From the IMG/VR virus record IMGVR_UViG_2563366976_000007: 9,836 nt of DNA; one strand, given 5' to 3'. Each line of letters starts with the position of its first letter. The first letter of the stretch is position 1. A program made the position numbers and the translations under genes. Of this stretch, positions 1 through 9,836 are shown piece by piece. The notes beneath the pieces are model-generated. The model had not been told where the DNA came from and made no database searches. It worked only from the letters and a program-made list of their open reading frames with translations. Origin of the DNA: a virus. Taxonomy: Duplodnaviria > Heunggongvirae > Uroviricota > Caudoviricetes.

Positions 1-1239
1 ATGAGCAGGGCAATTCATAGACTTAGCGACACTCTTTTACGAAAATTAAGCGGATCACCAACCACAAAAAACACCTTTTTTAATGATGGTGGCAACCTTA
101 GCGTAAGGCATTCAACCAATGGCCTGTTAACCTGGTATTTCACTTACAGGGCCGGAACAGGCAGGAAGGTAGCCCCTGAACGTCTGAGGCTGGGAAATTA
201 TCCAGATTTGAGCCTGAAAGCAGCCAGGGAAAAAGCGTCGCAGTGTCGCGCCTGGCTTGCTGAGGGTAAAAATCCACGCCATGAGCTTAATCACACCGTA
301 CAGGAAGCGTTATCACCTGTTACGGTTAAGGAAGCGCTCACTTACTGGCTTGAATCGTACGCGAAGGAAAAGCGCACAGATTACGAATCTCTGAAAAGCC
401 GGATCAATACACACATAATCAGCCATATTGGTGCTATGCCGCTGGAAAAATGCGAGCTACGCCACTGGCTGACCTGTTTTGATCAGCTTGCTAAGCGTAA
501 TCCGGTATCAGCAGGATTTTTGTTACAGGTATGCAAGCAGGCGCTTAAGTACTGCCGCAAACGACGCTACGCAATTACCAACGTTCTAGATGATATGGTT
601 GTAGGTGATGTTGGGAAAAAAGCAGAAATAAGCGAGCGCATACTAACAAACAAGGAGCTTGGGGAATTACTCCGCGCCCTGGATGAAAAAATTTACCCAC
701 CGTACTACAGCGCCCTGATTCGCCTCCTGATTGTCTTCGGATGTCGTACCACTGAGCTAAGACGCTCTGAGGTCCAGGAATGGGATTTTAAAGAAATGCT
801 CTGGACCGTGCCGAAAGAACATAGCAAAACGAAGGTAGCAATATTCAGGCCAATACCGGAAGCGATCTTGCCGTTCGTAACGAAGCTGGTGGAGCAGAAC
901 AGGCACACGGGATTATTGCTCGGAGAACTGAAAGGGCAATCATCCGTATCAGAGTACGGAAGAACGGCACACAGACGTATTAATCAAGCCCCCTGGACGT
1001 TGCACGACATCCGGCACACGTTTACAACGATGCTGAACGATTTAGGCGTGGATCCTCATGTAGTGGAGCAGCTAACCGCGCACCAGTTGCCAGGAATGCA
1101 ACGAGTCTATAATCACTCCCGTTATCTCGATGCAAAACGTGACGCTCTTAATCTATGGGTTGAGCGTCTCGAGCTTCTCCAGAACAATGATGAAAAAATC
1201 GTTGTTATGACCCCGAGAATTTACTCCCAAAATTCTTGA
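1..1239 (+). CDS. int: Tyrosine site-specific integrase, P4/CP4-57 type
   Basis: 412-aa ORF. N-terminal arm-binding-like region (LSDTLLRKL...WYFTYR...LGNYPDLSLKAAREKA) fits the pattern of P4-family integrases. C-terminal catalytic signatures: R in CRTTELRRSEV, HDIRHTF (HxxR) and VYNHSRY (catalytic Tyr). ATG at window position 1. Confidence 0.9.
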   Translation: MSRAIHRLSDTLLRKLSGSPTTKNTFFNDGGNLSVRHSTNGLLTWYFTYRAGTGRKVAPERLRLGNYPDLSLKAAREKASQCRAWLAEGKNPRHELNHTVQEALSPVTVKEALTYWLESYAKEKRTDYESLKSRINTHIISHIGAMPLEKCELRHWLTCFDQLAKRNPVSAGFLLQVCKQALKYCRKRRYAITNVLDDMVVGDVGKKAEISERILTNKELGELLRALDEKIYPPYYSALIRLLIVFGCRTTELRRSEVQEWDFKEMLWTVPKEHSKTKVAIFRPIPEAILPFVTKLVEQNRHTGLLLGELKGQSSVSEYGRTAHRRINQAPWTLHDIRHTFTTMLNDLGVDPHVVEQLTAHQLPGMQRVYNHSRYLDAKRDALNLWVERLELLQNNDEKIVVMTPRIYSQNS

Positions 1240-1284
1240 CAAATTACGGCTGTTTTTCTTGCGAAAAATGGCCCTCTAAAATAA

Positions 1285-1313
1285 ATCGTCGAATATCGGC
1301 AAATATCGACGAT
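1285..1313. promoter_or_regulatory. Imperfect dyad with internal direct repeat (ATCGTCGA...TCGACGAT; AATATCG x2) in the int-alpA intergenic region
   Basis: ATCGTCGAATATCGGCAAATATCGACGAT read directly; 8-bp arms are exact inverted repeats. Sits in the AT-rich 320-bp spacer upstream of alpA, near TTGAAA x2. Candidate regulator-binding site; function unknown. Confidence 0.3.
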
Positions 1314-1648
1314 TTATATGTGTCAAGTATTGAAAAAATTTGAAATGTCTTCTTCTGAGTTCTTATTCTCTGTTTCTTGATTGTTCCAACACCTGATGGT
1401 TTATCTATTTGTTTTTAATGAGGTAATTCAAGTGTCATGCCAAATGACGACATTTTTTGTTGCGTCGCTTAAAAACTCGTGACACGATTTTAAACACTAA
1501 CGAGCTTCTACGAACCTTAGCGAACAAAGCCTTTAGCATGGTTGTGTTTTTAATTTAAGAGGTGAAAAAGAATCTAAGTAATATCCGATCTCATATATCT
1601 ACAGCTAAGAGAAAAGTTTATATACGTAATTTTTATGTAGGTTTTTGT

Positions 1649-1858
1649 ATGCGTGAAATAAATGAAGATCGCGTAATCCGTGAGGATGAATGTCGTAAGT
1701 TAACTGGAGTGTGCCGCACTACACGTTACGAACTGGAGAAAAAAGGGCGCTTTCCGTCACGTCTTAATCTGGGCGGTCGTTCTGTAGGGTGGCTGCTGTC
1801 CGAGGTTATGGAATGGGTTAAAAGCAGGGATCGTATTAATTCAGGTAAGGCAGCGTAG
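1649..1858 (+). CDS. alpA: AlpA-family (MerR-like HTH) transcriptional regulator / excision activator
   Basis: Core LTGVCRTTRYELEKKGRFPSRLNLGGRSVGWLLSEVMEWV matches the AlpA/Vis-type HTH signature and size (~69 aa from ATG 1649). The track ORF starts at GTG 1562 (98 aa), but AlpA proteins are usually 60-80 aa; start is uncertain. Position directly after int is typical of enterobacterial satellites. Confidence 0.8.
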   Translation: MREINEDRVIREDECRKLTGVCRTTRYELEKKGRFPSRLNLGGRSVGWLLSEVMEWVKSRDRINSGKAA

Positions 1859-1884
1859 GGGGAACATATGATACATAAAACAAA

Positions 1885-1904
1885 GGCGACCTGGGGCGGT
1901 CGCC
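1885..1904 (-). terminator. Intrinsic terminator oriented for the minus strand
   Basis: GGCGACC-TGGGGC-GGTCGCC hairpin; on the minus strand it is followed by TTTGTTTTATGT. On the plus strand it is followed by AATGGGAAAA, so it is not a good plus-strand terminator. Ends the leftward transcript from the RHH gene, convergent with alpA. Confidence 0.5.
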
Positions 1905-1968
1905 AATGGGAAAACACTAAACATAAGCCCGAACATCATAGCGATTTGCTGGCTGGTGGGCAATGCAA

Positions 1969-2142
1969 TCAGTCTGGTTCAGTTCGTTGCCATACCTGCA
2001 ATGAGCGCGTTTCCCTGTACTCTTTAAGGAATTGCTCAAGGGCAAAAGCACATGGCGCGAATCGTTCTGATTCATGCTCTTTCTTTCTGCGTCGTCTTTT
2101 TCGTGCAGGTGATGTTTTTTCGGTTGATTCTTCGTTGGTCAT
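1969..2142 (-). CDS. Possible small basic protein (57 aa), hypothetical
   Basis: Hand translation of the minus strand gives MTNEESTEKTSPARKRRRRKKEHESERFAPCAFALEQFLKEYRETRSLQVWQRTEPD. It lies between the RHH gene stop (2200) and the minus-strand terminator (~1885-1904). Below the ORF-track length cut-off; no convincing SD. Speculative. Confidence 0.25.
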   Translation of the reverse strand: MTNEESTEKTSPARKRRRRKKEHESERFAPCAFALEQFLKEYRETRSLQVWQRTEPD

Positions 2143-2199
2143 TGTGTGCGCCTGTAAAGCAATGCGCCGTAGTACCTCACACCACGGCGCTGATAGTGA

Positions 2200-8660: not shown

Positions 8661-8672
8661 GCAGGGGAAACG

Positions 8673-9086
8673 ATGGCAACGAATGAAAGCATCATGGCGC
8701 TACCGCTGGCGAGTAAATTTAAAGCAGAAGCGCGGGCAATGGCTGACAGAGGTTTATCAACCTACGAGGCCGTATATCAACTCAACAAACTGGAAGAACA
8801 GGACAAGCCGCGCGCTGATGCGATTATGGCGCTTCATGAACATAACGACTATCAGCCGCTGTTACGTGCAATGGCAAACGTGCCATGTATTAGCGTCGAT
8901 AATGCTCGTGAAATCCTGAACATGACCATAGAGCAGGAGCGCCCAAAGGTTGCACCAGAGCTTACCGCAGCCTTTGAAAACTTTATGGACATGCACAGCC
9001 CGCAAGCCGTATCAGCTGGCATGGCGTACGATGGCAGAAACCAGGGCGATGACGGCGACATCGATCGCATACTGAAAACCATCTGA
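8673..9086 (+). CDS. Hypothetical protein (137 aa) between the decoration gene and cos
   Basis: AGGGGA SD 4 nt before ATG. Acidic, probably helical protein. Function unknown; by position it could be a packaging or head-completion factor. Followed by a terminator and the cos site. Confidence 0.65.
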   Translation: MATNESIMALPLASKFKAEARAMADRGLSTYEAVYQLNKLEEQDKPRADAIMALHEHNDYQPLLRAMANVPCISVDNAREILNMTIEQERPKVAPELTAAFENFMDMHSPQAVSAGMAYDGRNQGDDGDIDRILKTI

Positions 9087-9091
9087 GACAA

Positions 9092-9116
9092 GGCCGGAGA
9101 AATCCGGCTTTTTTTT
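9092..9116 (+). terminator. Rho-independent terminator
   Basis: GCCGGA-GAAA-TCCGGC hairpin followed by T8. Third copy of the same terminator motif. Confidence 0.75.
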
Positions 9117-9148
9117 ACGGGTCCTTTCCGGCATATGGACCCGTTACG

Positions 9149-9160
9149 GGGCGGCGACCT
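9149..9160. other. lambda-type cohesive end site (cosN), GGGCGGCGACCT
   Basis: GTTACGGGGCGGCGACCTCGCGGTTTTTCGCTATTTATGA matches, with one mismatch, the lambda cos junction and left-end sequence as I recall it (…GTTACG|GGGCGGCGACCTCGCGGGTTTTCGCTATTTATGA…); identity is lost after ~35 nt. Lies ~135 nt upstream of the Nu1-like gene, as in lambda. Confidence 0.8.
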
Positions 9161-9255
9161 CGCGGTTTTTCGCTATTTATGAGCCTTTTCAGGGGGGTGG
9201 TGGTGGTTTTGTTGTTTGCTCTATCTTTATGAATAAAAAGGGAAAGATGCAAGCA

Positions 9256-9291
9256 ATACACCAACCTGAAGCAGTAATTAAGTTGGTGTAT
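9256..9291. promoter_or_regulatory. Perfect 10-bp inverted repeat abutting the terS start codon
   Basis: ATACACCAAC (9256-9265) and GTTGGTGTAT (9282-9291) with a 16-nt spacer, ending 3 nt before ATG 9294. Together with a G-rich tract (GGGGGGTGGTGGTGG, ~9192-9206) it occupies the position of cosB in lambda. Confidence 0.4.
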
Positions 9292-9293
9292 TA

Positions 9294-9836
9294 ATGAAAT
9301 CGCACCTGATGAACAAAAAAAACATGGCTAAAAGCTGCCGTGTAAGTGCGACAGCGTTCGACAAGTGGGGAGTAACTCCCGTTGAGCGTAAAGGCCGTGA
9401 GGCGTTTTATGATGTTGCCAGCGTGATAGACAATAGGGTTAACAATGCAATTAGCCAGCTTACAAACGACAAAGGCGATATTGACGATGATGAACTATTA
9501 CGAGTCAGGATCAGATTACTGACAGCGCAGGCGGAGGCGCAGGAGCTTAAAAACGAGCGCGAACGAGGCGACGTTATTGATACAGGGTTTTGCCTGTACG
9601 CGCTTTCAAAGCTGGCGAGCCAGATTTCTTCAATCATGGACAGCATCCCGCTTACTATGCAAAGGAGCTTTCCACACATTACCCCAGCCATGCTGGATGG
9701 GCTTAAAAGGGAAGTGGTTAAAGCCTGTAATGCCAGTGCCAGAGTTGCCGACAACCTCCCACAGATACTGGCTGATTACTTGAAAGAAACAACCGGAAAC
9801 GTACCGGAAAAGTTGCAGCAGAATAAAGATAAGTAA
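9294..9836 (+). CDS. Terminase small subunit, lambda Nu1-like
   Basis: 180 aa (Nu1 181 aa). Strong block similarity to lambda Nu1 as recalled: LLTAQAEAQELKNERERGDVIDTGFCLYALSKLASQISSIMDSIPLTMQRSFP (Nu1 LTRAQADAQELKNARDSAEVVETAFCTFVLSRIAGEIASILDGLPLSVQRRFP) and C-terminal LKREVVKACN...LADYLKE (LKRDIIKAMN...LSEYIEQ). The N-terminal ~50 aa are more diverged. Start could be ATG 9294, 9309 or 9324; none has a clear SD. Stop TAA is at the window end. Confidence 0.85.
   Translation: MKSHLMNKKNMAKSCRVSATAFDKWGVTPVERKGREAFYDVASVIDNRVNNAISQLTNDKGDIDDDELLRVRIRLLTAQAEAQELKNERERGDVIDTGFCLYALSKLASQISSIMDSIPLTMQRSFPHITPAMLDGLKREVVKACNASARVADNLPQILADYLKETTGNVPEKLQQNKDK

Follow-up and report, generated by a model that had tools for sequence, protein, structure and literature searches.

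The DNA analyzed here, referred to as the window, is a stretch of 9,836 nt from the IMG/VR virus record IMGVR_UViG_2563366976_000007 (Caudoviricetes). It begins with a gene for a tyrosine integrase of 412 amino acids (aa), which forms the left end of the island body described below (1..1239; Pfam Phage_integrase, 1.4e-18; Arm-DNA-bind_3, 7.9e-17), and closes with a gene for a 180-aa small terminase subunit (TerS) of the Nu1 family (9294..9836; Pfam Phage_Nu1, 9e-23; phrog_57, 1.9e-52). Features are on the plus strand unless stated otherwise. Between these two genes lie alpA, encoding an AlpA-family activator/excision regulator (1649..1858; Pfam Phage_AlpA, 2.2e-16), and pri-rep, encoding a D5-type primase/helicase (~3409..5226; Pfam D5_N, 1.1e-13; Pox_D5, 9.7e-13; DUF5906, 1.7e-10). 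Directly 3' of the latter is a predicted replication origin (5238..5472, no strand assigned), where the iteron GGTGAACAGT occurs at least 11 times, with copies in both orientations. The late half carries a capsid module that consists of a 68-aa open reading frame (ORF) (7052..7258; phrog_3255, of unknown function, 8.5e-46) whose stop overlaps the start of the next gene, homologues of the major capsid protein (lambda gpE family; 7258..8313; Pfam Phage_cap_E, 5.7e-50) and of the head decoration protein (lambda gpD family; 8325..8660; Pfam HDPD, 2.6e-17), and a 137-aa protein termed here ORF X (8673..9086). The module is closed by a hairpin and T-run resembling a terminator (9090..9116, from a terminator scan), and is followed by a cos site (9117..9293) that adjoins terS. 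Apart from two small minus-strand ORFs, the genes are co-oriented across the window. As set out below, the window very probably covers, from integrase to terS, the body of a classical phage-inducible chromosomal island (PICI) of the Gram-negative type, which is 11.5 kb long, of a kind already catalogued in E. coli and closely related to EcCIIHE3034.

The limits of the element were determined from a near-identical copy (99.3%) in E. coli 23CRST038 (locus L001), in which the window corresponds to positions 12001-21820. This copy is flanked upstream by yljB and cspD. On the other side, terS is followed by one 282-bp ORF, by ~1.2 kb without annotated genes, by attR at ~1.5 kb past terS, and by clpS. 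An 11-nt repeat, ATGATAGTTAT, was found exactly twice, at L001 11817 and 23331, whereas two copies occurred in 0 of 100 shuffled sequences; the element was therefore bounded at 11.5 kb. The same sequence is printed as the att core of EcCIIHE3034 at cspD-clpS (Fillol-Salom et al., 2018; PMC6092414 Supplementary Table 1), and cspD-clpS is a listed PICI site (PMC6092414). By annotation, Pfam and PHROG, no large terminase subunit (TerL), portal, protease, tail or lysis gene was present in the window, in the att-bounded island or in the flanks of the 99.3%-identical copy, and the 93-aa ORF 3' of terS had no similarity to lambda gpA. The element is thus a satellite and not the end of a prophage. A preliminary description of the window, made from its letters alone, had proposed a satellite without portal, protease, TerL and tail genes, and had named such genes downstream as what would turn it into an ordinary lambdoid prophage end; the att repeats and intact host genes show that this objection fails.

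All five core components of PICIs as defined by SatelliteFinder, i.e., integrase, regulator, primase-replicase, capsid morphogenesis and terS, were found, which makes the element Type A; these were judged from Pfam and PHROG matches and from identity to c1499 of EcCICFT073. The forbidden components (tail, holin, portal and head-tail connector or adaptor) were absent from the annotation of the att-bounded 11.5-kb element, which has its own att site and a length within the ~10-15 kb range. Capsid morphogenesis and terS account for two of the five core components, and 97% of the Type A elements, which have all five, are found in E. coli (PMC10085698). The borders of the window, from integrase start to terS stop, resemble the way in which SatelliteFinder delimits elements.

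Among described islands, EcCIIHE3034 (NC_017628.1, 920272-930825; 10.5 kb, cspD-clpS site, 412-aa integrase; PMC6092414 Supplementary Table 1) agrees with the present island in integration site, att core and the length of its integrase; the genes from int to terS, and the 282-bp ORF, follow in the same order. The two integrases share 93% aa identity, and the DNA is 95% identical over window positions 6850-9836. The early and replication half, in contrast, is mosaic, with ~89% DNA identity over int-alpA, primases that are only distantly alike and single-stranded DNA-binding proteins (SSBs) that are 72% identical. EcCIIHE3034 is also shorter (10.5 versus 11.5 kb) and has an additional, inverted cos, located between terS and the 282-bp ORF. 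Together with EcCI18098, it was stated to "encode TerS" (Fillol-Salom et al., 2018, PMC6092414).

EcCICFT073 (NC_004431.1, about 1377930-1388654) is colinear with the island gene for gene. The shared order is int, alpA, YlcI, Icd, DUF4222, pri, ori, SSB, PerC, the 68-aa ORF, capsid, decoration, c1501/X, terminator, cosQ region and cosN, a DNA-recognition gene and the 282-bp ORF. The differences lie in the integrase and its site (on the roxA side), in cosB, and in the gene that follows cos, which encodes RppA in EcCICFT073 and a Nu1-type TerS here. The products of c1499 and c1500 were described as a capsid protein and a head decoration protein, respectively, in 2018 (PMC6092414), and 21 of 29 reference Gram-negative PICIs carry a capsid gene (PMC10111431). 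The element is already known: in essence it represents a variant of EcCIIHE3034 and belongs to a satellite type that is very common in E. coli. The layout of this type (c1499, c1500, c1501, cos) was published in 2018 and is incorporated in SatelliteFinder. The interpretation offered in the preliminary description stands insofar as this is a PICI-type satellite that would take from a lambda-like cos helper the parts it lacks (TerL, portal, protease, tails); its proposal of an unusual, new form of piracy does not. The element itself changes nothing, and the questions of what the capsid module does and of which helper and mechanism serve the TerS type concern the whole family and not this window.

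The head genes were compared with the actual lambda proteins, giving identities of 44% for the capsid protein with gpE, 37% for the decoration protein with gpD and 37% for TerS with Nu1. The capsid protein is 96% identical to EcCICFT073 c1499, and among 50,697 phage records none exceeds 47% identity to it, which points to an old island lineage and not to a recent capture. The decoration protein is 98% identical to its EcCICFT073 counterpart and 43% identical to gpD of a CFT073 prophage. Among five island copies, one of them at a synonymous divergence (dS) of ~0.85, the ratio of nonsynonymous to synonymous substitution rates (dN/dS) was ~0.10 for the coat gene, 0.03-0.12 for the decoration gene, 0.2-0.35 for ORF X and ~0.2-0.4 for the 68-aa ORF. 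The capsid genes are under purifying selection, and the module is a conserved, selected feature of the PICI family. The 68-aa ORF, which we take by numbering to be c1498 (it lies directly 5' of the c1499 homologue), had no Pfam or NCBIfam match and no similarity to gpW or gpC; an AF2 model predicted two helices with moderate confidence (pLDDT 74.5), and Foldseek returned nothing significant (best PDB match, E = 1.8). The guess, made by eye from a strand-helix-helix pattern, that it is a ribbon-helix-helix regulator was rejected, as neither family nor fold supported it.

ORF X, which is 93% identical to EcCICFT073 c1501 (also 137 aa), was identified by PHROG, BLASTP and profile comparison as homologous to lambdoid gpC in the C-terminal (Nu3/scaffold) part of the latter. 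Its match to phrog_53 ('head maturation protease', E 7.3e-10) covers positions 494-567 of the 583 in the profile. By BLASTP it aligned (37% identity, E 2e-10) with aa 416-493 of gpC from a lambdoid prophage of CFT073, a 501-aa protein that is itself 53% identical to lambda gpC. The repeat of gpC matched by ORF X aligns to lambda gpC 364-403, inside the nested Nu3 frame (lambda 5132-5737), and a profile-profile comparison (hhalign) gave a probability of 94% and an E value of 1.1e-7. Direct BLAST of ORF X against lambda Nu3 was not significant, so the homology is to the longer gpC/Nu3 type; the link to Nu3 runs through gpC of the 501-aa type, which other lambdoid phages have, and through the profile comparison. 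Judged by these alignments, the island carries a set of coat, decoration and scaffold-like genes after the 68-aa ORF. Every feature listed in the preliminary description, from the int-alpA-primase-iteron backbone to the gpE-, gpD- and Nu1-like genes and the lambda cosN, was found where it had been placed and with matches far beyond chance, but the statement that there is no scaffold gene was wrong. Genes of the c1501 type had previously been unannotated, and the "capsid morphogenesis" module can now be read as a coat, decoration and scaffold set. The order E-D-X-cos-Nu1 was also described correctly as permuted, since the head operon of lambda runs contiguously Nu1-A-W-B-C-D-E.

The cos site consists of a 15-nt block (9117-9131), cosN (9149-9160) and an island-specific cosB (9161-9293). 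The cosN is an exact copy of the lambda 12-mer GGGCGGCGACCT, which alone is not significant. The flanks extend the match: the 15-nt block ACGGGTCCTTTCCGG, 5' of cosN, is identical to the right end of lambda, and 21 of 22 nt on the 3' side equal the left end. Both flanks also match cos1 of EcCICFT073. In lambda, the right end is where cosQ lies. The cosN of phage N15 differs (GGGCGGCGTCCG), whereas the island cosN and its flanks are those of lambda. DNA through cosN and slightly beyond is common to the TerS-type and RppA-type islands, and cosB differs by type; past ~9184 the sequence departs from lambda and from the RppA-type island, but is shared with EcCIIHE3034. In the cos site, a GGTT(TT)GTTGTTT motif lies at an offset from cosN similar to that of a related motif in the N15 cos. 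Only one cosN, and no second cos, was found in the island. A second, inverted cos stands between terS or rppA and the 282-bp ORF in EcCIIHE3034, EcCICFT073, UTME-2 and ZH063 but not in this lineage, in which the 282-bp ORF begins 12 nt past terS (L001 21820-21832, compared with L004 10187-10444 and L003 48094-48374).

TerS occupies the slot of RppA in EcCICFT073. It is 96% identical to EcCIIHE3034 TerS, with a dN/dS of 0.13 against that copy, and its 37% identity to lambda Nu1 holds over a full-length alignment. The best match among the 50,697 phage records was N15 gp1 (46.6%). TerS aligns end to end with both lambda Nu1 and N15 gp1, middle and C-terminal parts included, and resembles N15 in its shorter linker and in the residues of its helix-turn-helix. 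In lambda TerS, residues 100-181 bind TerL. A phmmer search of PDB sequences returned only noise, with neither the Nu1 N-terminal domain nor RppC among the hits, the DNA-binding domain being too diverged. On its sequence the element is thus a hybrid of a lambda cosN with an N15-like TerS that is at most 47% identical to any sequenced phage record.

RppA (144 aa) acts only in complex with phage TerS (PMC6739421). The possibility that the gene at 9294..9836 is a long Rpp was considered and rejected, because its product has no BLASTP similarity to RppA (20% identity in a forced alignment) and is a full-length Nu1 homologue. Among the ORFs and annotation of the rest of the element there was no Rpp-like ORF of about 144-153 aa.

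Taken together, these features suggest the following life cycle, in which the excision and replication steps have been shown for EcCICFT073 and are transposed to this island. A lambdoid cos helper phage would induce alpA, and Int would excise the island. Pri would then fire the iteron origin, giving rise to concatemers. Packaging would be carried out by the island's own full-length Nu1-family TerS in place of Rpp: its N15-like winged-helix domain would read the island-specific cosB beside the lambda-identical cosN and upstream block, and its retained middle and C-terminal parts would recruit the gpA-type TerL of the helper. TerL would nick cosN and fill helper-made heads, probably with about four island copies, and helper tails would then be attached. 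Four units of 11.5 kb amount to 46 kb, ~95% of lambda, which fits the packaging of multimers into helper-sized heads. Both the life cycle of EcCICFT073 and a size rule for cos units have been described (PMC6092414, PMC6739421, PMC10530653), and alpA is needed for the induction and transfer of EcCICFT073 (PMC6092414). A TerS that recognizes its own cosB and directly engages the TerL of the helper would correspond to the TerS strategy of Staphylococcus aureus pathogenicity islands (SaPIs), transferred to a cos system. By analogy with EcCICFT073, the capsid module would not be required for transfer. Its most likely role, to judge from SaPIbov5 and its capsid-protein homologue Ccm, would be to join or disturb head assembly of the helper.

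Several points weigh against this scheme. The contacts of TerS with cosB and with TerL are both ones that we infer, and the last ~45 residues of TerS diverge from those of lambda, N15 and CFT073 prophage TerS and include a 13-aa extension. Deletion of either cos lowered the transfer of EcCICFT073 (PMC6092414), while this lineage is without the second, inverted cos. Induction and replication by a helper phage, transfer at high frequency and interference with that helper have been shown only for EcCICFT073. No helper is known for TerS-type islands, and marked EcCIIHE3034 and EcCI18098 gave <1 to 110 transductants/ml in their native strains (PMC6092414 Table 1). As for the capsid module, that of EcCICFT073 is dispensable, in that deletion of c1499 or c1500 left both transfer and interference with lambda unchanged, and all packaged DNA was phage-sized (PMC6092414).

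SaPIbov5, a cos SaPI, is likewise cos-packaged, with the ccm gene beside cos, and provides the only worked-out example of how such a gene acts: Ccm makes small capsids. Ccm is not known to be needed for transfer. SaPIbov5 differs from the present island in being Gram-positive, in using an HK97-type helper and in having neither a TerS nor a decoration gene, and there is no sequence relation between the two; no small capsids have been observed with the E. coli relatives.

The same data bear on the alternative raised in the preliminary description, namely that the island is a partial capsid-forming satellite whose gpE-, gpD- and Nu3-like proteins build their own, possibly smaller, shells on a helper portal and protease, with self-packaging by its own TerS. 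The three homologues are tightly spaced, co-oriented and directly 5' of cos-terS; they are under purifying selection, belong to an old island-specific lineage at most 47% identical to phage homologues, and are intact in 594 genomes (see below), and Ccm sets a precedent for a coat homologue that resizes capsids. In addition, the published negative results were obtained with islands marked c1501::tetA or c1499::cat, so that the module was not intact or the island was enlarged; RppA dominates interference in EcCICFT073 and could mask an effect of the module; and there is no report of particles from an island with an intact module. The module has been regarded as cargo space that can be dispensed with, and the marked islands of the published size and transfer tests carried it in disrupted form. 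On the other side stand the phage-sized DNA and unaffected transfer and interference of EcCICFT073, as well as the delivery of an island carrying c1498-c1501::cas9 to recipients with a phi80 Δcos helper. The island also has no portal, protease or head-completion genes of its own, and its size fits four copies per lambda-sized head, in line with the rule of the field that the length of a cos island stays an exact fraction of that of its helper. We considered whether the c1501::tetA marker might have caused all of the negative capsid results and rejected this, since the cas9 island still transfers; dispensability for transfer thus stands. Because the EcCICFT073 module is dispensable and its packaged DNA phage-sized, supply of a shell by the island would not be needed for mobilization, and the contention that the island provides its own shell finds no support in this analogy. 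We therefore regard a partial capsid-forming satellite as unlikely, and it is equally doubtful that the block from the 68-aa ORF to the scaffold homologue is a working half-capsid kit on helper portal and protease.

A P4-like satellite or a truncated capsid-forming PICI (cf-PICI) would share the int-alpA-D5 primase backbone, which is common to both. The cf-PICIs (EcCIEDL933; Alqurainy et al., bioRxiv 10.1101/2022.09.08.507074) have the same type of int-alpA-rep backbone and their own capsid protein and TerS, and steal only the missing parts. They are ~15 kb long, however, and are defined by their genes for TerL, HNH, portal, protease and head-tail adaptors or connectors; none of these is in this island, which ends ~1.5 kb past terS and has, of a gpC-type protein, only the C-terminal, scaffold-like part (ORF X). 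No homologue of psu, delta, sid or epsilon was found among the ORFs by Pfam, annotation and PHROG; the cos is of lambda type, and a P2/P4-type cos, searched for with a 19-nt pattern, was absent at up to 3 mismatches. We consider either reading very improbable. That the window is the decayed end of a lambdoid prophage, with a remnant of head genes beside the integrase, has next to no probability: capsid, decoration, scaffold-like, cos and Nu1 elements are all of lambda-type families, but the flanks already refute it, the same unit recurs at other sites with intact frames under purifying selection, the order E-D-Nu3-like-cos-Nu1 is not that of lambda, and the nearest phage homologues are 45-47% identical.

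To return to the classical PICI with its own TerS, such islands are common. Counts were made by megablast in 5426 complete E. coli genomes, a search in which a divergent RppC would be missed. The capsid module was present in 598 genomes, at full length in 594 of them; the cosB-terS block was found in 769 and rppA in 97, so that the TerS form occurs in ~8 times more complete genomes than rppA. In hundreds of genomes, and at several att sites, the same 11-kb unit is found again with its ORFs intact. In UTME-2 (NZ_CP169026.1, L006 1186-11321), the same capsid module and TerS are joined to a roxA-site integrase, with a RepA-type helicase replacing the D5 primase; packaging, capsid, replication and integration modules thus reassort independently. 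A related island in NZ_CM143727.1 (L005 1777-11992), with coat and decoration genes, an X homologue (50% identical, 22 aa shorter) and an Rpp-sized ORF, lies inside a prophage that has lambda-type head genes and contractile-tail genes, and is therefore a helper-embedded PICI. The TerS and Rpp forms may be cassettes that can replace each other, each with a matching cosB; the former is N15-like but has a lambda cosN, and this combination suggests where helpers of the TerS form might be sought.

The remaining genes of the window are small. At the position of alpA, the 99.3%-identical locus has an annotated helix-turn-helix regulator, and its primase gene is annotated as 'DNA primase family protein'. 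Between the two are the minus-strand ORFs, one for a 57-aa hypothetical protein (1969..2142) and one for a YlcI/YnfO-family protein (2200..2397; NCBIfam YlcI_YnfO_N, 3.5e-16), both of which are also annotated in L001, CFT073 and IHE3034. An open frame of 239 aa on the plus strand (1868-2587) overlaps both; none of the related genomes has it annotated, and it probably does not represent a gene. There follow an Icd-like ORF (2596..2793) and a DUF4222 ORF (3113..3412), each assigned from the RefSeq annotation of the near-identical locus, with a hypothetical ORF between them (about 2786..3106; phrog_15327, 6.3e-71). Window positions 2230-2751, covering the start of the Icd-like ORF, are replaced relative to L001 and to an otherwise 97-99.9% identical island in NZ_AP045810.1, and form a mosaic patch in the early region. 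In the origin, a repeat search found two repeat families and many inverted pairs; a pri-ori layout is functional in Gram-negative PICIs (PMC6092414), and the position of the iterons agrees with it. Beyond the origin are genes for an 81-aa hypothetical protein (5514..5759), an SSB (5756..6166; Pfam SSB, 1.7e-16), a PerC-family regulator (6177..6449; PHROG transcriptional-activator families and RefSeq 'PerC family') and a 74-aa hypothetical protein (6576..6800). The PerC-family gene stands just 5' of the capsid module; PerC-like genes from other PICIs of E. coli were tried on virulence promoters in the enterocyte-effacement locus (LEE), with a mixed outcome (PMC11773190).

Scans for tRNA genes in the window, for Rfam families in the window at the gathering threshold and in the whole island at E <= 0.01, and for PADLOC systems among ten small ORFs gave no matches, and a promoter scan found sites no more numerous than in shuffled sequence. 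Hairpins that resemble terminators and are nearly identical to one another, AGCCGGAG(A/C)AATCCGGCT with a T-run after it, are located at three places, 6456-6473, 6820-6837 and 9090-9111. They split the late half into PerC, the 74-aa ORF, the capsid module and cos-terS, and this repeated boundary may indicate where modules join or where read-through is controlled. Finally, outside the window, the segment from the 282-bp ORF to attR (L001 22108-23194) contains six copies of a 25-mer of CGGTAAC..GCTGA type in units of 125-310 nt and three TTAAC..CCGGAAAAA units, which may be arm sites of Int or AlpA or a decayed accessory region.

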